Source of the DNA: a phage
DNA: 64,000 nt
Direction: 5' to 3' (one strand)
Sequence record: PX418213.1
Part shown: positions 28,132-46,704 of the stretch, one piece after another
How positions within the stretch are numbered: position 1 is the first letter of the stretch
Layout: each line of letters begins with the position of its first letter
Notes under the pieces: model-generated
Told to the model about the DNA's origin: nothing
The model's input: only the letters and a program-made list of their open reading frames with translations
Database searches by the model: none
Position numbers and translations under genes: made by a program

Positions 28132-28368
28132 TTAACTAGATGCTGTTTCTACTGGCTGAGACACAGCAGGCTGTTCTAACGTATCTGGTGCTGATACAGA
28201 GAAAAGAGCTTGTAATGCTGCAATATCACGCTCGTAAGTATCAATACGAGTAGTAAGAGTATCTACCATCTGTTTATGGTAGGCTAAGTTATTCTGAGAT
28301 TCATCTCGAAGAGTTTGCAGTTCTGCAAGACGTGTTAACATAATTTCACTAATTAAAGCATTACTCAT
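28132..28368 (-). CDS. coiled-coil protein
   Basis: 78-aa ORF. Confidence 0.5.
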   Translation of the reverse strand: MSNALISEIMLTRLAELQTLRDESQNNLAYHKQMVDTLTTRIDTYERDIAALQALFSVSAPDTLEQPAVSQPVETASS

Positions 28369-28558
28369 TTGTTTCTCCTAAGTTTTCCGGTTCTTCTAAA
28401 CGTTTGCCTTCATGATCTACTCGAATAACTCCGCACCCTTCGCAAATCACAACTGCACCATAACCTTCTTTGACCTCAGCTTCTGTAATCAAACCAGAAA
28501 GATCACCAGTATCTCTGCCCCACATATCAATGGAGCATTGTTTGCAGAAATCAGCCAT
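28361..28558 (-). CDS. hypothetical protein
   Basis: 65-aa ORF. Confidence 0.45.
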   Translation of the reverse strand: MADFCKQCSIDMWGRDTGDLSGLITEAEVKEGYGAVVICEGCGVIRVDHEGKRLEEPENLGETNE

Positions 28559-28583
28559 ATTTTATTTCCTATTTAAGTTAATT

Positions 28584-28660
28584 TGGGGTGGCTAGTGGAA
28601 TTCGAATCCACATAGGCCTGATTCACAATCAGGATCATTAACCAATTATGATATAGCCAC
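28584..28660 (-). tRNA. tRNA-His (GTG)
   Basis: extra 5' G typical of tRNA-His; anticodon arm CTGAT-TGTGAAT-ATCAG. Confidence 0.7.
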
Positions 28661-29029
28661 AATTGAAAACTCGCAGGGTTAGCGAAACCATCCTCAATTA
28701 GCATGTTCTAGAATACTAATCAAGTTATCTCCTATTGCACGCAGCTCAAGACGAGTACGAATTTTCAATTGTGGCGGCTCTCCGAAACTCTTCTACTCTA
28801 GCCTTAGCAGCTTACTCCCGAACGCATGTCGGGAAAGTCTTACTAAGAGTATCAAATAGCACCGTTACACTTTGAGCCATAGGTGTATCAAGAAGCAGAA
28901 GGACTTGAACCTTCACGAGATAGACCATTTATCTCAGCCGCTTTATGAGGTATGTTGCGGGGAGTGGATGTTCCCCATAAACCTTTTAGGCAGCCCCGTC
29001 TACCGATTCCGGCATACTTCAAGATTTTT
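28661..29029 (-). ncRNA. non-coding stretch with isolated T-arm-like hairpin
   Basis: GAAGG-TTCAAGT-CCTTC hairpin near 28898-28914 with no matching acceptor stem; GGGGA..TCCCC hairpin at 28958-28975. Confidence 0.3.
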
Positions 29030-29203
29030 TTATAAACCAGCAGAAGCCTCATTTAGAGCATCAACAATAGCTTCACGTTGGGTCATTCCATACCCGGTGG
29101 AATCTAGGTGTGGCAAATAAGCCATCCATCCCTTATCTGTTTCATGAAGACATGCTTTAAATTTTGTACCATCCTTCATTGTTACAGTAACTGTTTTGCT
29201 CAT
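29030..29203 (-). CDS. small hypothetical protein (57 aa)
   Basis: hand-translated MSKTVTVTMKDGTKFKACLHE...; AAGGAAA RBS. Confidence 0.4.
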   Translation of the reverse strand: MSKTVTVTMKDGTKFKACLHETDKGWMAYLPHLDSTGYGMTQREAIVDALNEASAGL

Positions 29204-29223
29204 AAGATTTCCTTATAGTTAAT

Positions 29224-29313
29224 TGGCAGAAGATAATGGAGTCGAACCATCACCGTATCGCTACAGCGGGCTGGTTTTCAAGACCAGTTACGTACCACTA
29301 CGTCCTATCTTCT
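29224..29313 (-). tRNA. tRNA-Ser (TGA)
   Basis: 90 nt with long variable arm; anticodon arm CTGGT-CTTGAAA-ACCAG. Confidence 0.7.
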
Positions 29314-29326
29314 AGTATTTATTATA

Positions 29327-29674
29327 CTAATAGTCACTCGTACTAGTGAAGTTTTCTACTTTTCCACAAATTTTACAAGTCCTACGATGGTAGTAGGTAA
29401 TTTTTACTTTAGACCAGCCATCGTGATCATTACCTAGGTTTTCTGTTACTCCCCAAGTATGAGAACACTCATTTTCAATTTGCTTAGTAAGAGCGTTATA
29501 GCGAGTATAAAACTCCTCCTGAGCAATAGCAAACTCTTTCTGTAGTTTATCACGAGCAATAATAGCACGTTCCAGATATGTTAAATCTGGCATTCCAGCT
29601 TTTTCAGCAGCATCTATAATCTTATCTTCATCTAAAGATGCTAAAAACTCTAGAGCTTTATCTTTTGCTAACAT
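29327..29674 (-). CDS. hypothetical protein with C-terminal Cys pairs
   Basis: 115-aa ORF; ...CSHTWG...RRTCKICGK. Confidence 0.5.
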   Translation of the reverse strand: MLAKDKALEFLASLDEDKIIDAAEKAGMPDLTYLERAIIARDKLQKEFAIAQEEFYTRYNALTKQIENECSHTWGVTENLGNDHDGWSKVKITYYHRRTCKICGKVENFTSTSDY

Positions 29675-29693
29675 TATTATTACCTCAAGTGTT

Positions 29694-29784
29694 TGGCGGA
29701 AGAGGAGAGATTTGAACTCTCAAGCCGTTTTACCAGTCAGCCACTTTCCAAGCGGTTTTCGTCGCCAATTCGATTTGCTCTTCC
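29694..29784 (-). tRNA. tRNA-Ser (GGA), tentative
   Basis: 91 nt; acceptor GGAAGAG/CTCTTCC; T-arm GAGAG-TTCAAAT-CTCTC; long variable arm. Confidence 0.55.
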
Positions 29785-29804
29785 AATAATAAGATGATGC
29801 CTCT

Positions 29805-29893
29805 ATCACACCAGGCTGTTATGCCTCGCTGGGATTCGAACCCATTAAAACAGCTCAACCGAGATAGTAGGTTTAATTTACTCTGACCATCAA
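29805..29893 (-). ncRNA. degenerate tRNA-like element
   Basis: T-loop GGGTTCGAATCCC at 29831-29843 but no complementary acceptor strand or encoded CCA. Confidence 0.3.
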
Positions 29894-29896
29894 ATT

Positions 29897-29973
29897 TGGT
29901 GCGTGACAAGGGATTCGAACCCTCAAAACCCGACTTCTAAGGACGGTATGTATGCCAATTCCATCAATCACGC
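29897..29973 (-). tRNA. atypical tRNA, anticodon TAG (Leu codon) but class-I length
   Basis: 77 nt; acceptor GCGTGAT/GTCACGC; D-loop GAATTGG (Leu-like); loop CTTAGAA; no long variable arm. Confidence 0.45.
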
Positions 29974-29978
29974 GTATT

Positions 29979-30057
29979 TGGTGGAGAATAACGGAATCGA
30001 ACCGTTCTGATGTCCTCGGTGCAAGCGAGGTGTCCACTCCATGCAGACCCATTCCCC
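29979..30057 (-). tRNA. tRNA-Ala (TGC)
   Basis: G3:U70 pair in acceptor (GGGGAAT/ATTCTCC); anticodon arm CCTCG-CTTGCAC-CGAGG. Confidence 0.7.
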
Positions 30058-30295
30058 AAATTCTTTAGTTTACTAAGGCTATTAGCTCGGCGCAACTACA
30101 GCACCTTCGCTTCGAGCGGAAGGAACTGCGTCATCTCGCAAACCCAATACACTATTCAGTTGCCGCTGAATCTAGTGGACTAATCTAGAACTTCTCCCGA
30201 ATCGTAGGGATCGTGCTTTTTGGCAGCCAGTCCTAGGTCGAGCTAATACCTTAGTGAACTATGATGAGGATTTCTCCTCATCAATTTATATAAAT
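30058..30295 (-). ncRNA. structured leader / candidate ncRNA at 5' end of tRNA transcript
   Basis: no ORF; long-range complement AGGCTATTAGCTCG (30076-30089) with CGAGCTAATACCT (30239-30251); local hairpins. Confidence 0.35.
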
Positions 30296-30324
30296 ATTAT
30301 AACAAGAAATTAAGCATCAAGCAA
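30296..30324 (-). promoter_or_regulatory. T5-type promoter driving tRNA cluster segment
   Basis: TTGCTT, 17 bp, TATAAT; overlaps 3' end of CDS 30317-30685. Confidence 0.55.
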
Positions 30325-30685
30325 GTACATTTTTAGCGATTTCTTGCAGTTCCTTTACATCACGAACGTAAAGGTAATCAGAGCTTCCAGAGTGCATACT
30401 TTGCATAACTACACCTTCATCTGGTGCATTATCCTTCAGAGTAATTCCTAACCAGAACTCGGCAAAACTAGGTGTTATCTCACCTTGACTTGCCTTGAAT
30501 ACATCATATTCTGTAAGTTCTTGACCAGTAGATAATCCCAAATAGACAGAACTAAGATCTATCTCTTTATGAGACTCATAAAACTCCGTTAGATCTTTCT
30601 CCATATCCCAACCATGCTGTAACGCGAACTCCATTGCCACATGACTGAAATAACCTTGAATCTTGCTTGATAATTGCATTTGCAA
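30317..30685 (-). CDS. hypothetical protein
   Basis: 122-aa ORF starting with TTG. Confidence 0.5.
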   Translation of the reverse strand: MQMQLSSKIQGYFSHVAMEFALQHGWDMEKDLTEFYESHKEIDLSSVYLGLSTGQELTEYDVFKASQGEITPSFAEFWLGITLKDNAPDEGVVMQSMHSGSSDYLYVRDVKELQEIAKNVLA

Positions 30686-30704
30686 TTCCTTATTTTGAGT
30701 TAAT

Positions 30705-30778
30705 TGGTACTCGGTGATAGAATCGAACTATCGCAATCGCCGTGTAAAGACGGGGTTCTCCCATTAAACTAACCGAGC
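30705..30778 (-). tRNA. tRNA-Val (TAC), tentative
   Basis: acceptor GCTCGGT/ACCGAGT; T-arm GATAG-TTCGATT-CTATC; loop TTTACAC. Confidence 0.5.
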
Positions 30779-30782
30779 AATT

Positions 30783-30861
30783 TGGTAGATCGCCTGGGAC
30801 TCGAACCCAGAACCTTCCGATTAAAAGTCGGATGCTACTAAACCTATTGAGCTAGCGATCT
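30783..30861 (-). tRNA. tRNA-Lys (TTT)
   Basis: anticodon arm TCCGA-CTTTTAA-TCGGA; acceptor AGATCGC/GCGATCT. Confidence 0.7.
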
Positions 30862-30862
30862 A

Positions 30863-31030
30863 TTAGTAACCATTGTATACTTCTTTAATAGAGTGAATTT
30901 TCAAGTAAGGGTGATTAGTATTAAACTCTGCCATTACTTCATCCCAATTTTTACCGTAATGAGCGAGTAAGGATTTTGATGTATTCTTACCTAAACGTTT
31001 GTCACTTACTACTAATCGAAATACTTTCAT
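30863..31030 (-). CDS. small hypothetical protein (55 aa)
   Basis: hand-translated MKVFRLVVSDKRLGKN...; AGAGGA RBS. Confidence 0.4.
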   Translation of the reverse strand: MKVFRLVVSDKRLGKNTSKSLLAHYGKNWDEVMAEFNTNHPYLKIHSIKEVYNGY

Positions 31031-31050
31031 TTCGAAATCCTCTATTAAAA

Positions 31051-31128
31051 TGGAAGCGGGTGCAGGAATCGAACCTACCTCTTTCTAGCTTATGAGACTA
31101 GTGATCTCTACCAGAGATCTAACCCGCA
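31051..31128 (-). tRNA. tRNA, anticodon CAT (Met/fMet/Ile2)
   Basis: anticodon arm CTAGT-CTCATAA-GCTAG; T-arm GTAGG-TTCGATT-CCTGC; irregular acceptor end. Confidence 0.55.
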
Positions 31129-31134
31129 ATTGTT

Positions 31135-31212
31135 TGGTCTCCGTGGGAGGATTTGAACCCCCGACCCTATCGCCCCAAACGAAACGCTCTGGCCAAACTG
31201 AGCTACACGGAG
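31135..31212 (-). tRNA. tRNA-Pro (TGG)
   Basis: acceptor CTCCGTG/CACGGAG; D-arm GCTCAGTTTGGCCAGAGC; loop TTTGGGG. Confidence 0.6.
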
Positions 31213-31216
31213 AATA

Positions 31217-31375
31217 TTATTTCTTCAACCACAACAAAGATAAGCCCAACATACTAAAGCCGCTAACTAATCCGATACATTTTTCTTCTATAGTAAAAGT
31301 ATCTAGATTAAATGCTGTTATAGCTATTGGCATACACCATAATGCCATAAAAACTTGAGCTATCTTGTGTTTCAT
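31217..31375 (-). CDS. small membrane protein (52 aa)
   Basis: hand-translated MKHKIAQVFMALWCMPIAITAF...; GAAGGAAAG RBS; promoter directly upstream. Confidence 0.4.
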   Translation of the reverse strand: MKHKIAQVFMALWCMPIAITAFNLDTFTIEEKCIGLVSGFSMLGLSLLWLKK

Positions 31376-31407
31376 TTTGCTTTCCTTCTCTTCACTTTAT
31401 AAGATAT

Positions 31408-31436
31408 ATTATACAGAGAATTAAGCAGAATAGCAA
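31408..31436 (-). promoter_or_regulatory. T5-type strong sigma70 promoter
   Basis: TTGCTA, 17 bp, TATAAT. Confidence 0.6.
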
Positions 31437-31439
31437 ATG

Positions 31440-31828
31440 AATTTTTAATAAATTTACTTATTGTGTAGGCCACCTGGAGGCTACCAACCCCACGGCTGAC
31501 AAAGAAGTTTGCGAGACCTCTCTTAAATGCCAGAATAGACCCGCCGATCTATCGGAACCTACATAATAAGTAAACTTTATAGTGTCATTCTAGACAGGAC
31601 TCGAACCTGTTATCACTTGTGCGGACTTACGAGAACCATTCTTTCACTCGAATCGAACGAGCTTCTGCCCTAGCCAAGCTGGTTTCCCCATCAACCACGC
31701 TAGAATGTTTGATTGTTTTCAGTGCAAGAGTCCGAGTCTTGGACACGACCGCTTCGCAAGTACATAGGCAGCTTATCATGAGTCAGCACTTCCGAATTGC
31801 TAGCTCCGTGTTCTGCACTGAAATTTTG
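31440..31828 (-). ncRNA. structured non-coding region with tRNA-like elements
   Basis: no ORF; D-arm-like TGGTT-GATGGGGA-AACCA; two T-arm-like hairpins (CTCG-TTCGATT-CGAG and ACAGG-TTCGAGT-CCTGT); ATTCTAG/CTAGAAT complement about 120 nt apart; separate stem TTCAGTGCA/TGCACTGAA (31719-31727 with 31812-31820). Confidence 0.35.
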
Positions 31829-32176
31829 TTAATTTAATAGTAAAGTACGATCTACTTCACCATTAATTGTTCGGCACTCTTCTGGGATTGCTGGTGTAGC
31901 CTTATATTCCCACCATTCAGAACCGTCGTATTCACCACGTTCTAACCAAGTTCCGTCAGTAAACCATACATTACCATAAAGCAATTGCCCACCGAAACCC
32001 GAGTCATATTTAAAGTCTAGATTATTTAGAAAATCTTCAATATCTTTTTCTGTATAACCTACGGGCAATACCCAAACTTCTTTGTCTCCATAATAACCGA
32101 ATTCTATCTTAATACACTTAACTTCAGAATTAGTATTCTTTAGGGCAAGTAACAACTCTTCTTTAGCATTAATCAT
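31829..32176 (-). CDS. hypothetical protein
   Basis: 115-aa ORF. Confidence 0.5.
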   Translation of the reverse strand: MINAKEELLLALKNTNSEVKCIKIEFGYYGDKEVWVLPVGYTEKDIEDFLNNLDFKYDSGFGGQLLYGNVWFTDGTWLERGEYDGSEWWEYKATPAIPEECRTINGEVDRTLLLN

Positions 32177-32202
32177 AGCATATTTCTCGTGCTAGTTTAA
32201 TT

Positions 32203-32278
32203 TGGTACACCCACTAGGACTTGAACCTAGAACCCTCCGCTTAAGAGGCGGTAGCTCTAACCATTGAGCTATGGATGT
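32203..32278 (-). tRNA. tRNA, anticodon CTT (Lys-type), tentative
   Basis: acceptor ACATCCA/TGGGTGT; D-arm GCTCAATGGTTAGAGC; loop CTCTTAA. Confidence 0.5.
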
Positions 32279-32279
32279 A

Positions 32280-32438
32280 TTAAATTACTTTTTCCAGTTC
32301 ATCAGCTATGGCTTTGATTTTTTCAAAGTTTACATCACTTATAATGATACCTTCCAGTGACAGAGATATTCTAGCATTTTTCATAGCAGATTCTTTTATC
32401 TGCTCTATCTCTTCTGGAGTAAACTCCCTACGTTCCAT
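32280..32438 (-). CDS. small hypothetical protein (52 aa)
   Basis: hand-translated MERREFTPEEIEQIKESAMKNARISL...; AAGGTAGG RBS. Confidence 0.4.
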   Translation of the reverse strand: MERREFTPEEIEQIKESAMKNARISLSLEGIIISDVNFEKIKAIADELEKVI

Positions 32439-32455
32439 AGCTAACCTACCTTATT

Positions 32456-32532
32456 TGGCGCGACCGATGGGATTCGAACCCACATTCCCTCCCGTGACAG
32501 GGGAGTACCATTACCAAGCCAGCCCCGGTCGC
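32456..32532 (-). tRNA. tRNA-Asp (GTC)
   Basis: acceptor GCGACCG/CGGTCGC; anticodon arm CTCCC-CTGTCAC-GGGAG. Confidence 0.75.
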
Positions 32533-32541
32533 ATAATTCAT

Positions 32542-32727
32542 TTACTCAGCTTTGAGTTTTTCAATAGCTGCATTAAGTTCCTTAAGAAACTCTTTTCGTA
32601 CATTAAGACGATTAAGACTTACTAGTATATCATGTTTAAGTTCTTCGATGTATTTCTTCTCAACTTCAATATTGTTGAGAGTGCTATCACGATGAACCTC
32701 TAGCTGCGCAATTACATTCTTGGACAT
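32542..32727 (-). CDS. small coiled-coil protein
   Basis: 61-aa ORF. Confidence 0.4.
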   Translation of the reverse strand: MSKNVIAQLEVHRDSTLNNIEVEKKYIEELKHDILVSLNRLNVRKEFLKELNAAIEKLKAE

Positions 32728-32829
32728 GCTTGTTTCCTCAGTTATTAATGAAAATGGTATCTGTGGCTGAATTCGATGTCAGCAATGATAGCTGGTTGGC
32801 TACCGGTTTACTTAACTCTACACAGAATT

Positions 32830-32912
32830 TGGCGGGCCGTGTAGGATTCGAACCTACGTTGTCTTTCGACATGGATTAACAGTCCACCGCCAAACCGCTT
32901 GGCTAACGACCC
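32830..32912 (-). tRNA. tRNA, anticodon GTT (Asn-type) with 13-nt extra arm
   Basis: 83 nt; acceptor GGGTCGT/ACGGCCC; anticodon arm GTGGA-CTGTTAA-TCCAT; variable GTCGAAAGACAAC. Confidence 0.55.
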
Positions 32913-33064
32913 TAAATTTATATTGCTGACTAGGATTTTCACCTAGACGGAGTTAGCACCGTAGCGTGTAGCGGCATACCTCTCCAAACCGTGCCTCATC
33001 TTTCAATTACGGAGACAGTGTTCCTACGCGTGCCTGAATTGATTTAACAATTCTTTCAGCAAAT

Positions 33065-33140
33065 TGGACGACCGCATGAGATTTGAACTCACATAAAAAG
33101 GATTTGCAATCCTTCGCCTAAGCCATTCAGCCAACGGTCG
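33065..33140 (-). tRNA. tRNA-Cys (GCA)
   Basis: anticodon arm AAGGA-TTGCAAA-TCCTT; acceptor CGACCGT/GCGGTCG. Confidence 0.7.
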
Positions 33141-33188
33141 ATTTATCTTGTTCTGTCATGTTGCTTCTCCAGTTCAATTTATGTAATT

Positions 33189-33217
33189 ATTATACAGAAC
33201 TTTTGGAAACTAAGCAA
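33189..33217 (-). promoter_or_regulatory. T5-type promoter upstream of tRNA-Cys
   Basis: TTGCTT, 17 bp, TATAAT. Confidence 0.6.
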
Positions 33218-33497
33218 CTACATTTTTTAAGAATTTGATGCCTTTCTTTTTCTTCTTATATTTCCACGTTAATGGATTCTGTCGATTATGAACGCTTGAG
33301 ATCTTCGTCTCGTCAAAGTTCTTCAATATCATGTAATCACAAGATAATTGTTCTAGTGGAATGTGATCACCGTCAAAAGCGTATACATAGGGCTGTTGAC
33401 TAGCACGATAATGATAGACTTTGTTAATTCTACGTTTCAGCGACTTATCCGCGCAGTAAATAAAGAAGTTTTCAGGATGCATCAGCAGCTCCTTCAA
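33210..33497 (-). CDS. hypothetical protein
   Basis: 95-aa ORF. Confidence 0.5.
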   Translation of the reverse strand: MKELLMHPENFFIYCADKSLKRRINKVYHYRASQQPYVYAFDGDHIPLEQLSCDYMILKNFDETKISSVHNRQNPLTWKYKKKKKGIKFLKNVVA

Positions 33498-33499
33498 TT

Positions 33500-33574
33500 T
33501 GGTGCACCCTGTTCGTATCGAACGAACCTCTCAAGCTCTTCAGGCAAGCGCTAATCCATCTCAGCTAAAGGTGC
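33500..33574 (-). tRNA. tRNA, anticodon ambiguous (GAA-Phe or CTG)
   Basis: acceptor GCACCTT/AGGGTGC; T-arm GTTCG-TTCGATA-CGAAC; anticodon stem irregular. Confidence 0.45.
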
Positions 33575-33580
33575 AAATTT

Positions 33581-33660
33581 TGGCAAACCTACTAGGACTC
33601 GAACCTAGACCGTACGGTTTTGGAGACCGACATGCTGTCCAGTAACACTCTAGGAATGCA
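33581..33660 (-). ncRNA. tRNA-like element with mismatched acceptor
   Basis: T-arm CTAGG-TTCGAGT-CCTAG, variable hairpin ACCGTACGGT, 3' TAGGTTT-G-CCA; 5' strand pairs at only 5 of 7 positions. Confidence 0.35.
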
Positions 33661-33665
33661 GGAAT

Positions 33666-33742
33666 TGGCGTCCTGTGCGGGGGTCGAACCCGCAAATCCT
33701 ACCTTGAAAGGGTAGTGACTTTACCAGTTTGTCTAACAGGAC
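33666..33742 (-). tRNA. tRNA-Glu (TTC)
   Basis: acceptor GTCCTGT/ACAGGAC; anticodon arm CTACC-CTTTCAA-GGTAG. Confidence 0.75.
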
Positions 33743-33748
33743 TTAAAT

Positions 33749-33835
33749 TGGTGGGGAAAGATGGAGTCGAACCACCCGAGTCGCAATGACAACTGATTTA
33801 CAGTCAGCTCTGCTACCACTTACAGAATATTTCCC
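33749..33835 (-). tRNA. tRNA-Tyr (GTA)
   Basis: long-arm tRNA; acceptor GGGGAAA/TTTCCCC; anticodon arm GCTGA-CTGTAAA-TCAGT. Confidence 0.7.
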
Positions 33836-33967
33836 CATATTTAGAAGTATTCAAAAAATTCTAATTTAAACACTTTTAAATATGTTTCCAAATTAGGTAA
33901 CTATTATACCAAGTTTTAAGGCACTGAGCAAGTCAAATTTTAAAGAACTTGCTCAGTGCTGTATTGG

Positions 33968-34243
33968 TTAGTCGAACTTAGGAGTGACAGTTAAGGAGAA
34001 TGGAAGTTCGAAAACTTCTTCACCCTCATTACTAACAGTAATTACACGACCTTTAAGTTCAGACATTGAAATATCAATATCAGCTTTTGCATCCGGAGCC
34101 ATGCCAGCTTCAACACATTTAGCTTTAATTTCCGGCAGAAGTTCTACATCATAGAAATAAAGCCATTCAATCTCACCTTCCCAGCCTTCCCAGGATTTAC
34201 AGATTGCACTTTCAATACCAGCTGCTATAACACGATTTTGCAT
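33968..34243 (-). CDS. hypothetical protein
   Basis: 91-aa ORF. Confidence 0.5.
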   Translation of the reverse strand: MQNRVIAAGIESAICKSWEGWEGEIEWLYFYDVELLPEIKAKCVEAGMAPDAKADIDISMSELKGRVITVSNEGEEVFELPFSLTVTPKFD

Positions 34244-34273
34244 TCATTAACTCCTTCATCAATTTATATAACT

Positions 34274-34303
34274 ATTATATCAGAAATTTAAAGCAAAAGG
34301 CAA
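34274..34303 (-). promoter_or_regulatory. T5-type sigma70 promoter
   Basis: TTGCCT, 18 bp, TATAAT. Confidence 0.5.
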
Positions 34304-34333
34304 GTACATTTTTAAAAATTCTGTTTGGAGGAG

Positions 34334-34540
34334 CTAAACTCCAGATTCTTCAGCCAAGTCTAGGCTAATAAGAGATATAGCCATAATTGCCGCTCCATGT
34401 TCTTTTTCTCCAGTCTCTTTAGCTAGAGTTATAATGTCAAGAAATTGCTTATGAAAATCTGCAACCTCTTGAGTTATACCTGCCTCAGCAATCATGCCTT
34501 TAAGCATAAAACGTTGTGCAGTAATTTCAGGATTAGCCAT
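34334..34540 (-). CDS. hypothetical protein
   Basis: 68-aa ORF. Confidence 0.45.
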   Translation of the reverse strand: MANPEITAQRFMLKGMIAEAGITQEVADFHKQFLDIITLAKETGEKEHGAAIMAISLISLDLAEESGV

Positions 34541-34700
34541 GTTGTTTCTCCAGTTTCATCTTTAATAGTCTACAAATAAAATCAATGTCTTCATCCGTGC
34601 CTAGATCTCTGTCTTCAAGAGTTGCCTTGAAGTTTTTAGTCAATTCCATGAGGATAACTTCCCTAGAACGACGTGTTGGCGGAGGTGGATGTCTATACAT
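34533..34700 (-). CDS. small hypothetical protein (55 aa)
   Basis: hand-translated MYRHPPPPTRRSREV...; AAGGAAA RBS; stop overlaps next start. Confidence 0.4.
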   Translation of the reverse strand: MYRHPPPPTRRSREVILMELTKNFKATLEDRDLGTDEDIDFICRLLKMKLEKQHG

Positions 34701-34715
34701 CTTATTTCCTTAATT

Positions 34716-34792
34716 TGGTAGGGGTGGTGGGATTCGAACCCACAAAACCTGAATTTTAAGTCCAGTACCTATGCCAATTCGATTACACCCCC
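34716..34792 (-). tRNA. atypical tRNA, anticodon TAA (Leu codon) but class-I length
   Basis: 77 nt; acceptor GGGGGTG/CACCCCT; D-loop GAATTGG; anticodon arm CTGGA-CTTAAAA-TTCAG; no long variable arm. Confidence 0.5.
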
Positions 34793-34893
34793 ATGTAATC
34801 AGTTTATTAGTTGATACATATTATAGCCTAGTGAAAATCCTACTACTAGTCCCACAAACCAACCAATATAATAATCTTTTAGTTTCACAGGTA

Positions 34894-35079
34894 TTATCCT
34901 CTTTCAATATCTAGAGAAATACCACAGTTAGGATTAATACCTGTACCCTTGCAATTTGGGCAAATCCATATATTGCAAAAAGTATCTCCTGCTTCTGCAT
35001 CAGAACTTTCACCAATTCCCCTACACTCAGGGCAGGCGCATTCTTCTAGCTCTTGCTTGAGTTCTTGAAACTTGGACAT
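34894..35079 (-). CDS. small zinc-ribbon-like protein
   Basis: 61 aa; CPECRG...CPNCKG. Confidence 0.5.
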   Translation of the reverse strand: MSKFQELKQELEECACPECRGIGESSDAEAGDTFCNIWICPNCKGTGINPNCGISLDIERG

Positions 35080-35088
35080 ATAGTCTCC

Positions 35089-35277
35089 TTAGTTAATTAC
35101 TTTTGAGGCTTCTAAAGCATTAACGTAGTAAACATCTTCTACATTATACATATAGTCTACTACTTTGTCCATAGCATGGAGTTCGGATGTAGCCTTTACT
35201 AGTCTGTACCCTTGTTTAAACTCGTCCGAACGTTCTCTATCTTGTGCAAATTTAACAGAAACTATGAATAATTCCAT
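35089..35277 (-). CDS. hypothetical protein
   Basis: 62-aa ORF. Confidence 0.45.
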   Translation of the reverse strand: MELFIVSVKFAQDRERSDEFKQGYRLVKATSELHAMDKVVDYMYNVEDVYYVNALEASKVIN

Positions 35278-35296
35278 TAATTGTCCTTATTTAATT

Positions 35297-35374
35297 TGGT
35301 GGCTCCCCGAGGATTCGAACCTACGTACCTTCCGGTTATGAGCCGGGTGCTCATACCATATGAGCTTGAGAACC
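35297..35374 (-). tRNA. tRNA, anticodon CAT (Met/Ile2)
   Basis: acceptor GGTTCTC/GGGAGCC with G-U pairs; loop CTCATAA; T-stem has mismatches. Confidence 0.5.
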
Positions 35375-35380
35375 AAAATC

Positions 35381-35469
35381 TGGCGGAAGAAGTGGGAATC
35401 GAACCCACAAGGCTATATTTCAAACCGACAGATTAGCAATCTGCTGCAATACCGTTATGCTATTCTTCC
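35381..35469 (-). tRNA. tRNA-Ser (GCT)
   Basis: 89 nt long-arm tRNA; acceptor GGAAGAA/TTCTTCC; anticodon arm GCAGA-TTGCTAA-TCTGT. Confidence 0.65.
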
Positions 35470-35484
35470 GAATTTATAAGATAT

Positions 35485-35513
35485 ATTATATTAGAAATTT
35501 AGCTTCATAGCAA
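35485..35513 (-). promoter_or_regulatory. T5-type promoter upstream of tRNA-Ser(GCT)
   Basis: TTGCTA, 17 bp, TATAAT. Confidence 0.6.
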
Positions 35514-36060
35514 GAAAATTTTTCAAGTTTTCGGTAGACATCTCATCCATATCTACGGGAGAAACAAAGCCGTTTAATTTTCTAGCAAATTTTTCACCTG
35601 CAGGGTCATTATCCCCAACAGCTACCAATTTAAAAGGTAGTAATTTCAGTTGCTTTAATAATGCTTTTCCTGGAGAAGAACCCAACATTGCCAGGGCTGG
35701 ATAACCAGCGTTATGTAGCGCCACTGCCTTAAATACAGACTCAGCAATCAATACTACTTTTTCATCTCCATTGAGAGTTTCTAGTCCCCATACACACTGG
35801 GTAGTAGAATAAGTAAAATATTTAGCTTCAAAGGGGCACTTACCATGACCTTTTGGAGCAGAAGGATTATAAGTTTGATAGCCCCTCAACATCCCAGAGA
35901 AGTCATACAACGGGACTGTTAGCCATCCTTCCGGACTTAACCAGCAATGATATTTATCTGTATCAAATCCTCTAGATAAGAGGTGCTGTGTTAGCTCATC
36001 AACATTCATATTTGGTTCCTCTCTCAAATTTATAGATATATTATACTGAGAATTTAGCAT
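35491..36060 (-). CDS. Toprim-domain protein (primase-like fragment)
   Basis: VLIAESVFKAVAL...VAVGDNDPAGEKF resembles DnaG-type Toprim E...DxD motifs; only 189 aa. Confidence 0.55.
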   Translation of the reverse strand: MLNSQYNISINLREEPNMNVDELTQHLLSRGFDTDKYHCWLSPEGWLTVPLYDFSGMLRGYQTYNPSAPKGHGKCPFEAKYFTYSTTQCVWGLETLNGDEKVVLIAESVFKAVALHNAGYPALAMLGSSPGKALLKQLKLLPFKLVAVGDNDPAGEKFARKLNGFVSPVDMDEMSTENLKNFLAMKLNF

Positions 36061-36068
36061 TCAAGCAA
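36040..36068 (-). promoter_or_regulatory. T5-type strong sigma70 promoter
   Basis: TTGCTT, 17 bp, TATAAT. Confidence 0.6.
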
Positions 36069-36184
36069 TCAAATTTTTTAACTTTTTAGAGGAAAATCAT
36101 AGGGCACTTAAGGGTAGCAGATAAGTGGTGAGGACCAAAATTTGTGACCCCACTAAAAATTCAGGGGCAATTTTTAAAGACCCC

Positions 36185-36213
36185 TTGACATTTTCGCTGG
36201 GGTAGTGTAAAGT
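36185..36213 (+). promoter_or_regulatory. sigma70-type promoter for plus-strand three-gene module
   Basis: TTGACA (36185-36190), 17-bp spacer, TAAAGT; AGGAGG RBS before 36266. Confidence 0.4.
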
Positions 36214-36265
36214 ATATGTTATGGATGAGTGATCAAAGAGACACACATTTTCTATATACTAGGAG

Positions 36266-37261
36266 GTGTCAAAAATGACAGAAGAAGTAGCTAAGAGTCC
36301 TGAGACCGTCGCTAGCGTTGCAGCAGAACTGCACCGTCACGAGGAATCAGATAAGAAAAAGTGGGAGAAGGTCAGAGCCTACGAAGAAAAACATCGTGAA
36401 CACGATGATGAAGAAGATGACGATGATGAACATTGTCATAAATATGGAAAACATAAAATGCAAGAACCAGTAAACGTATTTACTAGTGGCTTCCCTGGCC
36501 TACTGGGTGGTTACCCAGCAAACGCAGGTGCTTTCGGTGGTGAAGGTATGGGACTATTCGGAGCTATCCTAATCGGTGCTCTATTAACAGGCGGATTCGG
36601 TGGATTCGGTGGATTCGGTGGACGTGGTATAGTTGGTGAAGGTACCGCAGTTGATGCAGTACTTCAGAACCAAGATACCGCTAGTATTCTAGCAGCTATT
36701 AACACTACTCGTACAGAAGCTAATCAGGGTACTGGGGCTGTTTTAAGCGCAGTTAACAATGGTTTTAGCCAGACATCCCAAAACCAGAGCCGTGATACTC
36801 AGTCTGTACTAACTACGATCTATGGTACAGGTGCTAATCTGTCTAATCAGATCTGCCAGGAAACTCGCAATGTTATTCAGGGTCAGTTCGATCTTTCTCG
36901 CCAGATTGATCAATCTTTCGCAGCTAATCAGATAGCTCGTGCACAAGATAAGTTTGATTCTGCACAGATCGCTTTCCAGCAGACTTTACAAACTAATAAC
37001 CAGTTTGCCGCTGTTCAGGCTCAGATGTGTGCTAACCAGAACTCTCTGGAACGTCAGATCGCTGAATGTTGCTGTGAACTTCAGACTGCGATCGCTGGTG
37101 TAACTACTGCGCGTATCCAGGATGAGTTAGACGCATGTCGCCTACGTGAAGCAATCGCTGCGGGTAGCGGTGCTAACGGTCAGGTAATTAATCAAATCGC
37201 TTTAAGTCTTGGTGCTATCACTCAGACTCTGGCTGGTCTGCAGGCTAAACTGCCGGCTTAA
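36266..37261 (+). CDS. glycine-zipper membrane protein with Q/N-rich coiled-coil-like tail
   Basis: 331 aa; His/acid-rich N-terminus (HREHDDEEDDDDEHCH); GLFGAILIGALLTGGFGGFGGFGG; long Q/N/S/T-rich region with ECCCE. Confidence 0.6.
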   Translation: MSKMTEEVAKSPETVASVAAELHRHEESDKKKWEKVRAYEEKHREHDDEEDDDDEHCHKYGKHKMQEPVNVFTSGFPGLLGGYPANAGAFGGEGMGLFGAILIGALLTGGFGGFGGFGGRGIVGEGTAVDAVLQNQDTASILAAINTTRTEANQGTGAVLSAVNNGFSQTSQNQSRDTQSVLTTIYGTGANLSNQICQETRNVIQGQFDLSRQIDQSFAANQIARAQDKFDSAQIAFQQTLQTNNQFAAVQAQMCANQNSLERQIAECCCELQTAIAGVTTARIQDELDACRLREAIAAGSGANGQVINQIALSLGAITQTLAGLQAKLPA

Positions 37262-37282
37262 TATTAAGGGGAGGAGCCCATT

Positions 37283-37699
37283 ATGAGTAAATATGGTTTT
37301 GTAAATAACGGACTTAATCAAAGTATGGGCTCCCAGCAGCCCGTTCCGGGTCTGGATAACCCCTACTTACAACAGTTGCAACAGCGTTTAGCAGAAGCGC
37401 AACAGATGCAGCAACAACTCCAGCAAAACCCTGGAAGTGTAAGTCCTATGCAAATGATGCAGCAAATGAGCGGGCAGTCGCAAATGTCTCAACAAATGCA
37501 GCAACAGATGCCGCAGCAGCAAGTTCAACAACAAACCCAACAACCGCAGGTTTCTGCGGAAGGACAGGCAGTACTAGCCCTTTTCGAAGACTTCGCAAAG
37601 ACAGAGGATGGGAAACAGCTTGTATCACTTATGGGTAAGTTTAATAGCTTCTGCCAAAGCCAAGTTGCAAAAGCTCAAAATGGTGGTAATAACTCCTAA
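37283..37699 (+). CDS. Gln/Met-rich low-complexity protein
   Basis: 138 aa; central QQLQQRLAEAQQMQQQLQQ...QQMQQQMPQQQVQQQTQQPQ; GGAGG RBS. Confidence 0.55.
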   Translation: MSKYGFVNNGLNQSMGSQQPVPGLDNPYLQQLQQRLAEAQQMQQQLQQNPGSVSPMQMMQQMSGQSQMSQQMQQQMPQQQVQQQTQQPQVSAEGQAVLALFEDFAKTEDGKQLVSLMGKFNSFCQSQVAKAQNGGNNS

Positions 37700-37708
37700 G
37701 GAGAAATT

Positions 37709-37903
37709 ATGTGTTGCAGAAAATCTGTTTCGTGCTGCCCAATGCCTGTAGCACGTTGTTGCTCTCCAGCAATGTTTACGCAAATACCGGCGTTCAATCC
37801 GTTTGCCTTTAAGCCTACTCTTATCCTGCCCCCTAGAGTGGATTTTCAGTCAAGATTGGCCTCCCGTATGGGTGGTTGCTGTACACCGAGAGTGTGGTTC
37901 TAA
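37709..37903 (+). CDS. small Cys-doublet-rich peptide
   Basis: 64 aa with four CC doublets (MCCRKSVSCCPMPVARCC...GGCC); AGGAGA RBS; followed by terminator. Confidence 0.45.
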   Translation: MCCRKSVSCCPMPVARCCSPAMFTQIPAFNPFAFKPTLILPPRVDFQSRLASRMGGCCTPRVWF

Positions 37904-37913
37904 ACCAAAAACA

Positions 37914-37950
37914 AAAGCCCCTGCCGAAAGGTAAGGGGCTTTTTCTTTTG
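37914..37950 (+). terminator. rho-independent terminator
   Basis: AGCCCCT...AGGGGCT hairpin followed by TTTTTCTTTT. Confidence 0.65.
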
Positions 37951-37959
37951 CCTTAAATA

Positions 37960-37994
37960 CAGAAAAGCCCGCGCTCTCGGAGGAAACGCGGGCT
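37960..37994 (-). terminator. rho-independent terminator for SPFH gene
   Basis: GCCCGCG...CGCGGGC hairpin with U-run on minus strand. Confidence 0.6.
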
Positions 37995-38018
37995 TGGTTC
38001 GAAGATTACGTGTAACTA

Positions 38019-38966
38019 TTACTTGTTACGCATATCCATGATCATTTGACCATCGTAGCCAGTACCTACCACAGTCTGAGGTACACCACCTTGATATTTC
38101 TGAGCACGAATCATCTCAACTTCCAGTTGTTTCCAACGAATCATCTCAGGAGTAATAGTACGTTGCAATGCGGCGTTAGCTTCAGCTTCTTTCTTAGCTG
38201 CGTACAGTTTAGCATCTGCGTCACGTTCATTAGCAATAGCTTGGTTGTTGCGAGCTTCACGATCTGCTTCTGCTTGTTTAACCTTCTGCTGTGCTTCTTG
38301 TTCAACACGAGCCAGTTCAGCTTTTGCAGCATTAACTTGCTCTTCACGAACTTTGGTATTCTGTACCTGCTCCATGATTACCGGTGGCAAAGTAATATCC
38401 TGAAGGAACACCTGCTTAACTGTGTAACCATATGGGCGTGCATACTCTTCAACTTCCTGTTGAATTGCAGTTTGCAATTGAGCCTGAATTTTAGCATCAA
38501 ACAAATCTTGTGCTTTAGGTACAGACTTACCAAACTCACGAATAGTAGACAGTAATTTTTCAGTTACATATTTGTCTAACGCTTGATCCTGAGTACCTGC
38601 ATTAATACGGTTAATCGGTGCCTTAGAACCATCAAACTGCAACATAACAGTCAGGTCAACAGTGGATTTAAACTTATCCTGACTAGGAACCTGAAGTTTA
38701 TCTAATTTTAGAGCAATATCTTTTGTACTAAAAGTATCGAAAGAAGCAAAAGGATTTACAATATGAAAGCCGGGTAATACTGGATTAGGGTCTACTTTAC
38801 CCAGGAAAGTCTGGGTTTTAACAGTACCGTCTTGAACAACAGTATAGGAGTTAAGGGCCAGAACTAAACCTACCAAACCAACTGCAGCACCAATACCCCA
38901 ACGTTTGATATTACGCATCAATTTTTGCTCATAAGTCAGTTCTTTAGTGTTTTTAGTAGCAAACAT
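38019..38966 (-). CDS. SPFH/band-7 (prohibitin/HflKC-like) membrane protein
   Basis: 315 aa; N-terminal TM (WGIGAAVGLVGLVLAL); band-7-like core; C-terminal coiled coil. Confidence 0.65.
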   Translation of the reverse strand: MFATKNTKELTYEQKLMRNIKRWGIGAAVGLVGLVLALNSYTVVQDGTVKTQTFLGKVDPNPVLPGFHIVNPFASFDTFSTKDIALKLDKLQVPSQDKFKSTVDLTVMLQFDGSKAPINRINAGTQDQALDKYVTEKLLSTIREFGKSVPKAQDLFDAKIQAQLQTAIQQEVEEYARPYGYTVKQVFLQDITLPPVIMEQVQNTKVREEQVNAAKAELARVEQEAQQKVKQAEADREARNNQAIANERDADAKLYAAKKEAEANAALQRTITPEMIRWKQLEVEMIRAQKYQGGVPQTVVGTGYDGQMIMDMRNK

Positions 38967-39000
38967 ATATTTCCTTTGTTTTAGTTACAGTTAATAAAAT

Positions 39001-39075
39001 TGGCCGAGGTGACAGGATTCGAACCTGCATAAAGGAATTTAGAAGACTCCTGCCTCTCCCTTAGACTACACCCCG
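39001..39075 (-). tRNA. tRNA-Arg (TCT)
   Basis: acceptor CGGGGTG/CACCTCG; anticodon arm GGAGT-CTTCTAA-ATTCC. Confidence 0.7.
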
Positions 39076-42329: not shown

Positions 42330-42968
42330 TTACTCTACTTCAATGAAGGTAGAGGCGTTAGACTCGGACAGAACAAAGTCAACATTTGTTGCAAAGTCCT
42401 GATATTCCTCGTCATGCTGCTTAATCAGCTTTTCCAGTTCCAGCGGATCAATCAAGAATGGAGTATTCTTGAGTTCCAGCAGGTTGAGCTGCATTTTAAC
42501 TTCATCTTCGGAAGTTTTCTTATCGCGGGTAGCCATGCTATCCTGCAAACGCTCATATTTAGCATCAAACTGTGCTTTCTGCGTATTAAACTTAACCGTA
42601 GCGGCATGGAACTGCTTACGCATATTAGCCAGCAGTTGGGCTTTAAGTTCCATAGAACGCTTAGCTTCAATTGCTTCCGCAACAGTCATCTTACGAGAGC
42701 CAATCTCAACGATTGTTTCCGCATTGCTTTTAATCAGAGCAGATTTGATACGATCACGCTGGGACATCATATCCAGGAGAGATTGGAAATCTGCCTTAAT
42801 ACGAGTAGACAAATCAGCTACTTCGATTGCAGCGCCAACTACAACCTGGTTTTTATCCTTACCTTCGCCAACAGCGATCAGAAGCTGCTGTTCAGTAGCT
42901 TTACGGATTTTAGCTTCCAGAGATTTGATAGTTGCCAGAGCGCGAGTTTTAGAGATACGAGTAGTCAT
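42330..42968 (-). CDS. hypothetical coiled-coil protein
   Basis: 212-aa ORF; overlapping plus-strand ORFs judged spurious. Confidence 0.55.
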   Translation of the reverse strand: MTTRISKTRALATIKSLEAKIRKATEQQLLIAVGEGKDKNQVVVGAAIEVADLSTRIKADFQSLLDMMSQRDRIKSALIKSNAETIVEIGSRKMTVAEAIEAKRSMELKAQLLANMRKQFHAATVKFNTQKAQFDAKYERLQDSMATRDKKTSEDEVKMQLNLLELKNTPFLIDPLELEKLIKQHDEEYQDFATNVDFVLSESNASTFIEVE

Positions 42969-43274: not shown

Positions 43275-43976
43275 TCAAATTTTCATTTTTTCGATCATAG
43301 CTGCAACACAATAGCTCTCAACTAAGGCATCAAATGCAGGAGCATGCTTAACCGGATAGATCCCATAACGAATGGTGTCCATCTTTTCCATTTTAGCTAT
43401 TGCCCAGCTAATACCTTCGGTCTCTAGAGCTTTATAACTGTATCCAGCTTGCATCCAGAGATTACGAAGAGATCGAACATTGCCCAAATTCCAGAATTTC
43501 CACGGAACTACCTCTTCATTGGTTCCAGCATGGAACGTATTTGCAGAGTAGATAGTCATATCAAACTCTGGGCCATTGCCATAATACAAAGCATTTTCGC
43601 CTAGAGCCAACTCCATAATATTTTGAGCCATAGAGAAGGCAGCATAGTTTGAGCCTAATTTATTAGTGCAATGATGTTTACCATTTTGGAAGGCAATCAG
43701 TTTTGGATTACGTTCCTTCATAGCTTCCATAATGTGGATAGCAGACGGACTATTTTTAGCTTGATCCATCCAGAATGCTAGAGTAGATGCTGTAACTTTG
43801 GCACCAGAATTAAGTTGATCTTGCACATCCAAAGTAACAAATACTAGATCAGGGTCTTTATCAATTCCATGCATAGCCACAAAAGCGAAAGAAGGCATTG
43901 CGATATGAGTAGTACCACAATCTCCTGGAGTTCCTAGAGATTCAATATCTAGCATACCAAATGGTTTTACTTTCAT
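43275..43976 (-). CDS. DEDD-family 3'-5' exonuclease-like protein
   Basis: 233 aa; N-terminal FGMLDIESLG resembles DnaQ-like Exo I motif. Confidence 0.5.
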   Translation of the reverse strand: MKVKPFGMLDIESLGTPGDCGTTHIAMPSFAFVAMHGIDKDPDLVFVTLDVQDQLNSGAKVTASTLAFWMDQAKNSPSAIHIMEAMKERNPKLIAFQNGKHHCTNKLGSNYAAFSMAQNIMELALGENALYYGNGPEFDMTIYSANTFHAGTNEEVVPWKFWNLGNVRSLRNLWMQAGYSYKALETEGISWAIAKMEKMDTIRYGIYPVKHAPAFDALVESYCVAAMIEKMKI

Positions 43977-44267: not shown

Positions 44268-44483
44268 TCACTTGCCCAGCAGTTTAAGGATATTTTCCAT
44301 AATAGTTTGGGCGGATTTTTCACTCTTGTTGGTTTCAGCCAACTTTAAAGCGAGTTCTTCCTGCTGTTTCTGAATATCAGCTGCGATTTTTTGATCAGCC
44401 TCAATACGAGCTTGAAGCTCATCAGTGATAGTGGTAAAGGAAGCAACGATTTCAGTAACAGAACGTGGTTTCTTAGAGAACAT
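44268..44483 (-). CDS. hypothetical coiled-coil protein
   Basis: 71-aa ORF. Confidence 0.45.
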   Translation of the reverse strand: MFSKKPRSVTEIVASFTTITDELQARIEADQKIAADIQKQQEELALKLAETNKSEKSAQTIMENILKLLGK

Positions 44484-45101: not shown

Positions 45102-45130
45102 ATTATACGAGAATTTGAAGCGTTTAGCAA
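45102..45130 (-). promoter_or_regulatory. T5-type strong sigma70 promoter
   Basis: TTGCTA, 17 bp, TATAAT. Confidence 0.6.
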
Positions 45131-45138
45131 ATGAATTT

Positions 45139-45588
45139 TTAATTTATTAACTGTAAGCTTCTTTTAATTTCAGACCTTACCTGCATCAAAAGAACTCCTA
45201 AAGTATTATCCCCGATGCCTCGGCAAACACCCCAATATGTATCTCCCCAGGTATTTCCTTCGATCAAAGTTGCATTTTTTGTTGCTAACAGTTTGTCTCT
45301 CAAATCAGGGATTGCAAACTTTAACCGTAAAAGCTCTAGCATTACATCATCTTTTACCTTATCCCAGTCAGAGCGCAGAGTTAATTTACGTCCTCTACGT
45401 TTGGCAACTCCTGCATTTAGGGAGCGCAGTACATGAGCTACATCATCTTTTTGGTCGGATTTCATAGCCTGAAAAGCATGTTCTACAGTATCAGCATGCC
45501 ATATCTCATTTAGGTATTCGAAAGTAATTGGTGATAAATAAAAGTTAGATAAGAAACTATAAGCACCTTTAAATTCAGTAATCTTCAT
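45139..45588 (-). CDS. NADAR-domain (YbiA-like) protein
   Basis: 149 aa; ...EGNTWGDTYWGVC...GDNTLGVLLMQVR resembles NADAR/DUF1768. Confidence 0.6.
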   Translation of the reverse strand: MKITEFKGAYSFLSNFYLSPITFEYLNEIWHADTVEHAFQAMKSDQKDDVAHVLRSLNAGVAKRRGRKLTLRSDWDKVKDDVMLELLRLKFAIPDLRDKLLATKNATLIEGNTWGDTYWGVCRGIGDNTLGVLLMQVRSEIKRSLQLIN

Positions 45589-45869
45589 TTTTTACGCCCC
45601 GCATCTTTAGCCTCTTCGGCTGTATAGATATACTGATAAGCCCCTTTGGAGTAGGCTGGAGCAGTACACATTTTCTTACGCTCAATCTCTTCTTGGGCTT
45701 TTCTTTCGCGTTCAGCTAATTCTTCATCCAGATAAACTAAACGTTGTTCTGGAGGGGGTGGAAGACGTGTTTCTGGCTCACCAATATTAGCCTTTCTTAT
45801 TTGACGAGGTGATTGTGCACGTTTTCTCAATGGTTTAAATCCTAATGAATTTGAGTTATAAATCCGCAT
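45585..45869 (-). CDS. hypothetical protein
   Basis: 94-aa ORF. Confidence 0.5.
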   Translation of the reverse strand: MRIYNSNSLGFKPLRKRAQSPRQIRKANIGEPETRLPPPPEQRLVYLDEELAERERKAQEEIERKKMCTAPAYSKGAYQYIYTAEEAKDAGRKK

Positions 45870-45896: not shown

Positions 45897-45925
45897 ATTA
45901 TACTAAATTAGAGGGCTTTAAGCAA
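45897..45925 (-). promoter_or_regulatory. T5-type strong sigma70 promoter
   Basis: TTGCTT, 17 bp, TATAAT. Confidence 0.6.
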
Positions 45926-45946: not shown

Positions 45947-46435
45947 TCACATCTCAGCCATTTCAGCTTCAGTAATAACTGTGTTACATAAGGCATCTAC
46001 AGCTTCATTACCACTAATACCAGAATGTCCTTTAACCTTAATAAAGGTAGGGTTAGTATTATGAAAGTTGATATACTGCTGTGTTAATTTAAATGCTTCC
46101 TGCCAAAGTTCTAGATTAAGAGGAACTTCACCATCTGCTTTCTTCCAGCCTTTCCTTTGCCAAGAAAACATCCAACTTTCCATACCATTTTTGCAATAAG
46201 CAGAGTCAGTATAGATAGCAATTGGTCTATTATCTTTTTTAACAGACCAACGTAGAGCTTCTACAATAGCTGTGAGTTCCATCTCATTATTTGTAGTTTT
46301 AGGATTATAACCAGATTTAGAACCTAAACGATCGTCGTTATCATCATAGACAATAAAACCCCAAGCACCTGGACCTGGATTAGACTTACAAGCACCATCT
46401 GTGTAAATGTGGAAAACCGACATTATACCTCCCAA
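45947..46435 (-). CDS. rnhA: ribonuclease H
   Basis: 162 aa; RNase HI motifs YTDGAC, NNEMEL, YTDS, GHSGI.GNE.VD. Confidence 0.8.
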   Translation of the reverse strand: MGGIMSVFHIYTDGACKSNPGPGAWGFIVYDDNDDRLGSKSGYNPKTTNNEMELTAIVEALRWSVKKDNRPIAIYTDSAYCKNGMESWMFSWQRKGWKKADGEVPLNLELWQEAFKLTQQYINFHNTNPTFIKVKGHSGISGNEAVDALCNTVITEAEMAEM

Positions 46436-46704
46436 CTAATTTTAAGACCCATGTCTACAAAGGCGGCTTCTCGGTAGTATTGTGAGAGATGATACCCCTT
46501 ATCCGATAAGGCTTTTAGTACCGATTTAGCCGCTCCTGGCATTTCTCTAGGGTTATATAGCCACCTAGCGTAAGGATTATCTCTAATAATTACTTCTGTA
46601 TTTCCAGACTTAGCAGCTTCTACAATCTTTTCTTCTATAAATTTTAGAAATGCGGGTACTTCTGTTAATCCTGCAAGTTCTTGGGCTTCTTTGGCTGAAA
46701 TCAT
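46423..46704 (-). CDS. hypothetical protein
   Basis: 93-aa ORF. Confidence 0.5.
   Translation of the reverse strand: MISAKEAQELAGLTEVPAFLKFIEEKIVEAAKSGNTEVIIRDNPYARWLYNPREMPGAAKSVLKALSDKGYHLSQYYREAAFVDMGLKISWEV

Follow-up and report, generated by a model that had tools for sequence, protein, structure and literature searches.

The minus-strand gene at positions 45139-45588 of the window, by which we mean the whole 64,000-nucleotide stretch of phage DNA analysed here, encodes a NADAR protein that is effectively the same protein as AdfN^Bas32, a phage factor described by Johannesman et al. (Nat Commun 2025, PMC11825919, section 11). In our view, this AdfN of the T5 group is very probably an early orphan antitoxin, which strips the ADP-ribose placed by the toxin DarT1 from guanine N2 in phage DNA. 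The preliminary description of the window had proposed that the gene product removes ADP-ribose from guanine and acts against DarTG systems. This proposal is supported by the published results of ectopic expression of AdfN^Bas32, which is identical to the window protein at 148 of 149 residues; the function of the gene is accordingly already published and not an open hypothesis, as which it had been treated. The features of the window that bear on this assignment are listed in Table 1.

Table 1. Features in and around the NADAR gene (positions in the window)
Feature	Position	Strand	Evidence or remarks
24-tRNA-gene cluster	26362-39075	-	typical of T5-like genomes; the early-gene block with the NADAR gene lies downstream
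Rv2179c-like 3'-5' exoribonuclease-domain protein (T5.087 homolog)	43275-43976	-	E = 3.6e-8
Small ORF, 71 aa, phrog_2380	44268-44483	-	present in Bas32; absent from T5 and Bas33
DUF7022 protein (T5.089 homolog), 171 aa	44548-45063	-	strongly basic at both ends
P-H207-type promoter, TTGCTA / 17-nt spacer / TATAAT	45102..45130	-	promoter scan; drives the DUF7022 gene
NADAR-fold ADP-ribosylglycohydrolase gene (AdfN^Bas32 ortholog; bas32_0066 / bas33_0070)	45139..45588	-	ORF, Pfam, identity, AF2, Foldseek
NADAR cassette, 490 bp	45141..45630	-	pairwise alignment; 46 bp at the same place in T5
Two 13-nt direct repeats, AAAAGATGATGTA	45451-45439 and 45355-45343 (span 45343..45451)	-
94-aa early gene (T5.090 homolog, phrog_4593), upstream of NADAR	45585..45869	-	stop codon overlaps the NADAR start codon
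Sigma-70-type promoter, TTGCTT / 17-nt spacer / TATAAT, upstream of the 94-aa gene	45897..45925	-	predicted
RNase H	45947-46435	-	E = 2.9e-32
Small ORF, 93 aa, phrog_5321	46423-46704	-	present in Bas33; absent from T5 and Bas32

Family, fold and active site

The open reading frame runs from an ATG to a stop codon with exact ends and encodes 149 amino acids. In a Pfam profile search, the protein matched NADAR (PF08719, DUF1768) with 78.9 bits (E = 6.9e-22), against a gathering cutoff of 35.1 bits, and the alignment pairs residues 9-142 with profile positions 9-163 of 163, that is, end to end. With membership defined as a full-length match above the cutoff, the protein belongs to this family. 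With the protein as the query, the match to E. coli YbiA (2b3w) was at 3.5e-15 and that to the NADAR of Phytophthora nicotianae (8bau) at 6.7e-7. Thus, the NADAR (YbiA-like) blocks that had been noticed in the translated sequence reflect a clear homology, far beyond chance. The protein also matched PHROG 1017, which is annotated as of unknown function, at 8e-45. Matches to defence models of PADLOC and NCBIfam were below threshold (PDC-M42C, E = 6.5e-7; DS32_2, 44.9 bits against a cutoff of 240) and were taken as family resemblance rather than membership. Two antisense ORFs within the gene (45215-45436 and 45237-45467, plus strand) were without support and were set aside.

The AlphaFold2 model, for which an alignment of 40 homologs with 48-59% identity served as the input, had a mean pLDDT of 97.6 and a pTM of 0.91, and showed six to seven helices, with strands at the two termini. 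The predicted structure has the YbiA fold, consisting of a helical core and two small flanking beta-sheets, in its bare form without extensions. A Foldseek search with the model gave TM scores of 0.82 for E. coli YbiA (2b3w; 37% identity), 0.76 for the Phytophthora NADAR-ADP-ribose complex (8bau; 28% identity) and 0.50 for the DarG1-type NADAR of Geobacter lovleyi (8bat; 16% identity), and it returned no significant match to non-NADAR folds. Profile alignments were likewise strong, with E values of 1.9e-37 against YbiA and 1.6e-19 against 8bau.

We used the profile alignment to 8bau to locate the counterparts of nine catalytic and ligand-contacting residues of the Phytophthora protein (Pn), the roles of which were described by Schuller et al. 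(2023, PMC11543638). Counterparts were found for all of them in the window protein: E43, K50, K75, R79, W89, R93, E125, D130 and W133 of Pn correspond to E36, K43, K63, R67, W75, K79, E110, D116 and W119, respectively, eight being identical and one a conservative replacement. E36, K43, E110, D116 and W119 are invariant among the 40 homologs. The first two reside in the segment TVEHAFQAMK, which carries the EHxFQxxK motif and aligns with the corresponding segments of 8bau and YbiA; this motif comprises the catalytic glutamate and the phosphate-binding lysine (E43/K50 in Pn and E88/K95 in E. coli C7; PMC11543638).

The residue on the last strand is diagnostic of the NADAR types, being Asp in DarG1 and His in the T4-type phage NADARs (classification of PMC11125620). 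In the window protein this position is occupied by the invariant E110, in the segment LIEGNTWGD, which pairs with E125 of Pn. The Glu-type residue places the window protein with the YbiA/NADAR types and not with the DarG1 or T4 type. From the retained residues, taken together with the in-cell activity of AdfN^Bas32, we infer that the window protein would hydrolyse guanine-N2-ADP-ribose on DNA.

YbiA and the stand-alone NADAR 8bau are the best structural and sequence matches, and they share with the window protein the bare YbiA fold, the Glu-type site and the ADP-ribose contacts, although the identities are only those given above and the YbiA-specific NCBIfam model is matched below its cutoff (see below). 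DarG1, the antitoxin of DarTG1 (E. coli C7, 8bat), performs the reaction ascribed to the window protein, on the same lesion, with its E88/K95 equivalent to E36/K43. DarG1, however, is a protein of ~230 residues with an N-terminal extension of the fold and an Asp (D171) on the last strand, and its gene lies beside darT1 (PMC11543638), whereas the window protein consists of 149 residues without the extension, has E110 at the diagnostic position, lacks a toxin neighbour and superimposes on 8bat with the low TM score mentioned above. Lacking the Asp, the extension and darT1, it does not belong to the DarG1 antitoxins (BC4488 family).

Relation to AdfN^Bas32 and the probable target

The window protein is equal in length to the products of bas32_0066 and bas33_0070, and differs from each of them by a single residue (K104E with respect to Bas32 and A9T with respect to Bas33), neither position being conserved. 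Both genes come from BASEL phages, namely, the Escherichia phages IrisVonRoten (Bas32; bas32_ tags) and HildyBeyeler (Bas33; bas33_ tags). In either genome, the gene fills the slot that it has in the window, with RNase H upstream and the homologs of T5.090 and T5.089 on its two sides, and the gene order is conserved. The near-identity and the shared flanking homologs of T5.090 and DUF7022 together identify the window gene as an ortholog of AdfN of the Bas32 type. The NADAR sequences deposited for Bas32 and Bas33 (L002 3001-3450 and L004 3375-3824) show two substitutions relative to each other, A/T at position 9 and E/K at position 104; in Johannesman et al. (PMC11825919) the two NADARs, together named AdfN^Bas32, are described as identical.

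According to that study, ectopically expressed AdfN^Bas32 neutralised DarT1 in uninfected E. coli, and enabled RB69, T5 and Bas25 to regain full titre on DarTG1 hosts. T5, in which the gene is absent, offers a natural contrast: it is sensitive to DarTG1 and was rescued by AdfN^Bas32 in trans. AdfN^Bas32 was without effect against DarTG2, which modifies thymidine (PMC11825919). The main text of PMC11825919 reports neither a knock-out of the gene in a T5-like phage that carries it naturally, nor the plating of Bas32 or Bas33 on DarTG1, nor an assay of a purified Bas32-type protein. De-ADP-ribosylation of guanine by a NADAR in vitro does not guarantee protection in cells (PMC11125620), so that the specificity of a NADAR is not readable from sequence alone. 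Unlike the Bas32-type protein (PMC11825919), E. coli YbiA gave no in-cell protection against DarT1 (PMC11125620). The window NADAR is, moreover, carried by a virulent phage and not by a LexA-controlled host operon.

The founding phage anti-DarTG1 NADAR is AdfN^T4 (T4 gene 30.3, gp30.3; 152 aa), which is of similar size, belongs to the same superfamily and has the same proposed task, namely, the orphan antitoxin-like removal of guanine ADP-ribosylation from phage DNA. The pairwise similarity of the two proteins was not significant (BLASTP E = 1.1), and only a remote profile homology was detected (hhalign probability 88.9%, 19% identity); together with the Glu in place of the His of the T4 type, this sets the window protein apart from the gp30.3 cluster. 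AdfN^T4 and AdfN^Bas32 also behave differently, as AdfN^T4 works only in a T-even context and does not neutralise DarT1 alone, whereas AdfN^Bas32 does (PMC11825919). Johannesman et al. take the view that phages gained NADARs several times (PMC11825919), and the remote homology to the T4 protein agrees with such repeated acquisitions.

These considerations lead us to the following scheme. A minimal 149-residue enzyme of the NADAR/YbiA fold would be co-transcribed early in infection with the upstream 94-aa gene. When DarT1 of the host puts ADP-ribose on guanine N2 of the phage DNA, AdfN would cut the N-glycosidic bond between the ADP-ribose and the guanine N2, and removal of the lesion would let phage replication proceed in DarTG1 hosts. 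AdfN would then be an accessory single-gene cassette acting as an orphan antitoxin, in a part of the T5-like phages only.

The natural target might be broader than, or other than, the guanine modified by DarT1, including ADP-ribosylated cytidine (C-ADPr), RNA or the products of other, partly unknown ADP-ribosyltransferase defences. This idea is compatible with the scheme above, and we regard it as possible but rather unlikely. In its favour, the last strand has E110 and neither the Asp of DarG1 nor the His of the T4 type, and the NADAR-/YbiA-family enzymes tested so far remove C-ADPr from DNA and RNA, an activity that DarG1s and the T4 NADAR do not have (PMC12945103). Johannesman et al. suggest other ADP-ribosylating defences as possible targets (PMC11825919), and the nearest relatives are spread across very diverse bacteria, archaea and phages, which fits a one-toxin role poorly. 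The tests of the Bas32-type protein cover DarT1 and DarT2, however; no phage defence that modifies cytidine is known, such a function being listed as unknown (PMC12945103), and the full rescue on DarTG1 by ectopic AdfN^Bas32 makes the simple explanation, removal of the DarT1 lesion, sufficient.

The cassette and its surroundings in the early region

The window derives from a T5-like phage (Tequintavirus). The 3-kb region around the NADAR gene matches 442 T5-like records (Demerecviridae, Markadamsvirinae) and is 98.5% identical to Salmonella phage SE11, which is nearer than any BASEL phage. The gene lies in a block of early genes that includes those for thymidylate synthase, DHFR and ribonucleotide reductase, amid promoters that are annotated in the T5 record. 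Its placement in the early region, as well as the presence nearby of a DEDD exonuclease-like gene and RNase H, had been pointed out in the preliminary description; both held, and the two neighbours are on the same strand as the NADAR gene (Table 1).

In the T5 record, the order is T5.089 (DUF7022), promoter P-H207, T5.090 and rnh, without a NADAR gene. The slot is also empty in the Epseptimavirus Bas28. A pairwise alignment of the window with T5, in which gap extension was made cheap, located the junctions of the cassette, which contains the 3' end of the upstream gene and the whole NADAR ORF but no promoter of its own. The right junction coincides exactly with the NADAR stop codon, with T5 homology back from 45140. 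The P-H207-type promoter (P-H 207 in the T5 record) begins 9 nucleotides past this stop codon and marks the right boundary. The left junction falls inside the T5.090 homolog, in its final ~15 codons, and this accounts for the C-terminus of the 94-aa protein being unlike that of T5. We considered co-adaptation with NADAR as the origin of this C-terminal difference, and rejected it in favour of the simpler recombination junction.

The stop codon of the 94-aa gene and the start codon of the NADAR gene overlap in an ATGA. The predicted promoter at 45925-45897 is identical in T5, Bas32 and Bas33 (alignment A1) and has its counterpart in the promoter that the T5 record places ahead of T5.090 (L003 3389-3463). 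It is the only candidate that could drive the 94-aa gene and the NADAR gene, and a scan of the coding strand from this promoter to the NADAR stop codon revealed no terminator-like site. The layout of the promoter and the ATGA overlap suggests that the two genes are co-transcribed early and translationally coupled.

Small accessory genes form a mosaic over the whole interval between RNase H and the exonuclease, as the distribution of the two small ORFs illustrates (Table 1). The flanks of the NADAR gene, made up of the 94-aa protein, DUF7022 and RNase H, contain no ADP-ribosyltransferase (toxin) gene. A functional link of NADAR with the Rv2179c-like exonuclease, DUF7022 or RNase H was rejected, since the three genes are kept in T5 and Bas28, which have no NADAR, and there is consequently no co-inheritance. 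Some annotations in this region deserve comment. Records disagree on the product of 43275-43976, many naming it 'metallopeptidase' and others 'exonuclease'; Pfam and PHROGs favour a nuclease. For the DUF7022 protein, many GenBank records give the name 'swarming motility protein', which appears to have spilled over from the adjoining NADAR/YbiA gene. A 212-aa ORF at 42330-42968 on the minus strand (T5.085 homolog, phrog_1491), without a Pfam match, is annotated as a 'tail fiber protein' among the early genes, and this annotation looks doubtful.

At a nucleotide identity of at least 95%, the NADAR gene was found in 96 phage records, as compared with the ~443 records that match its flanks; it is missing from about 347 of the 443 T5-like records. 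Several short 'Listeria phage' records, including OR848833.1 and OR847649.1, contain T5-type NADAR sequences that are 98-100% identical, and are probably fragments of T5-like phages under a wrong host label. A search of 185,579 species genomes gave no nameable recent cellular donor, as the best cellular matches are only 45-53% identical and scattered among Lachnospiraceae, Planctomycetes, Pseudomonadales, Myxococcales and a few archaea. The NADAR of Bas32 was placed as 'archaeal-like' by Johannesman et al. (PMC11825919). Relatives with 30-50% identity are also encoded by phages of Streptomyces, Vibrio and Stenotrophomonas, among others.

A NADAR with 60% identity is encoded on the minus strand of Salmonella phage vB_SenS_UTK0009 (Epseptimavirus; NC_111487.1 49333-49782, L006 4637-5086). 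Its neighbours are rnh on one side and the T5.090 homolog on the other, so that it is displaced by one gene relative to the NADAR of the window; with its different junction, it represents a second, independent insertion into this short early stretch. One could imagine that the T5-group AdfN is a broad-spectrum eraser directed against undescribed ADP-ribosylating defences rather than a dedicated anti-DarTG1 factor, with the stretch from RNase H to DUF7022 serving as a recurrent landing site for erasers. The first part of this thought comes from the action of the tested Glu-type members on cytidine and RNA as well, and the second from the entry of the UTK0009 gene one gene away. We consider it unlikely, and retain the reading of AdfN as an antitoxin against DarT1.

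Gene names, alleles and meaning

The NADAR gene appears in databases as 'swarming motility protein', 'GTP cyclohydrolase II', 'N-glycosidase', 'DUF1768', 'NADAR' or 'hypothetical protein'. Taken at face value, such names would make it a housekeeping N-glycosidase of riboflavin intermediates (YbiA/COG3236), or a swarming motility or GTP cyclohydrolase II protein, with no role in defence. E. coli YbiA is indeed its best match among the solved structures, and the NCBIfam model TIGR02464 ('riboflavin biosynthesis intermediates N-glycosidase') is matched at 66.5 bits. This score, however, is below the curated equivalog-domain cutoff of 73.7 bits, which leaves the protein outside the YbiA/COG3236 equivalog; just 37% of the residues are identical to YbiA, and no riboflavin gene adjoins the NADAR gene. 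The 'swarming motility protein' and 'GTP cyclohydrolase II' labels are artefacts of homology transfer, the former having been given even to the unrelated DUF7022 protein. Moreover, a 99%-identical protein acts against DarT1 in cells (PMC11825919), and even E. coli YbiA was active on G-ADPr in vitro, removing it (PMC11125620). A housekeeping function is hence highly improbable.

Alleles of the gene differ mainly at synonymous positions, the ratio of synonymous to non-synonymous codon differences ranging from 7:1 to 12:2, which fits purifying selection on NADAR. One naturally occurring allele is shortened. The 107-kb T5-like Logan contig SRR10680568_2548 (L005 3001-3354) has an in-frame NADAR deletion of 96 bp, leaving 117 codons for amino acids. 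The deletion lies between the AAAAGATGATGTA repeats, recombination between which gives this allele, and it eliminates residues 51-82, including the four ligand-binding residues K63, R67, W75 and K79. The product is presumably null. The existence of this allele and the absence of the gene from most T5-like phages indicate that NADAR is dispensable on many hosts. The same two observations might be taken to mean that NADAR is a decaying passenger without a current function in this phage, but we give this very little credence, since the window allele is intact with all the catalytic and ligand residues kept, the allele differences are mainly synonymous, the gene is kept at a nucleotide identity of at least 95% in 96 records and a near-identical copy is active in cells (PMC11825919).

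The mechanism class and the activity of AdfN^Bas32 had been published, and in this respect the gene opens no new question. What is added here is how the cassette is built and distributed, together with the independent UTK0009 insertion, the deletion allele found in nature, the assignment of a Glu-type active site and a gene name to replace the labels. The gene can be named with confidence as AdfN, an anti-DarTG1 ADP-ribosylglycohydrolase, in place of the misleading labels. Its patchy presence, in about one-fifth of the T5-like records, constitutes a simple genomic marker that should predict which of these phages, therapeutic candidates for Salmonella and E. coli among them, grow on strains with DarTG1.
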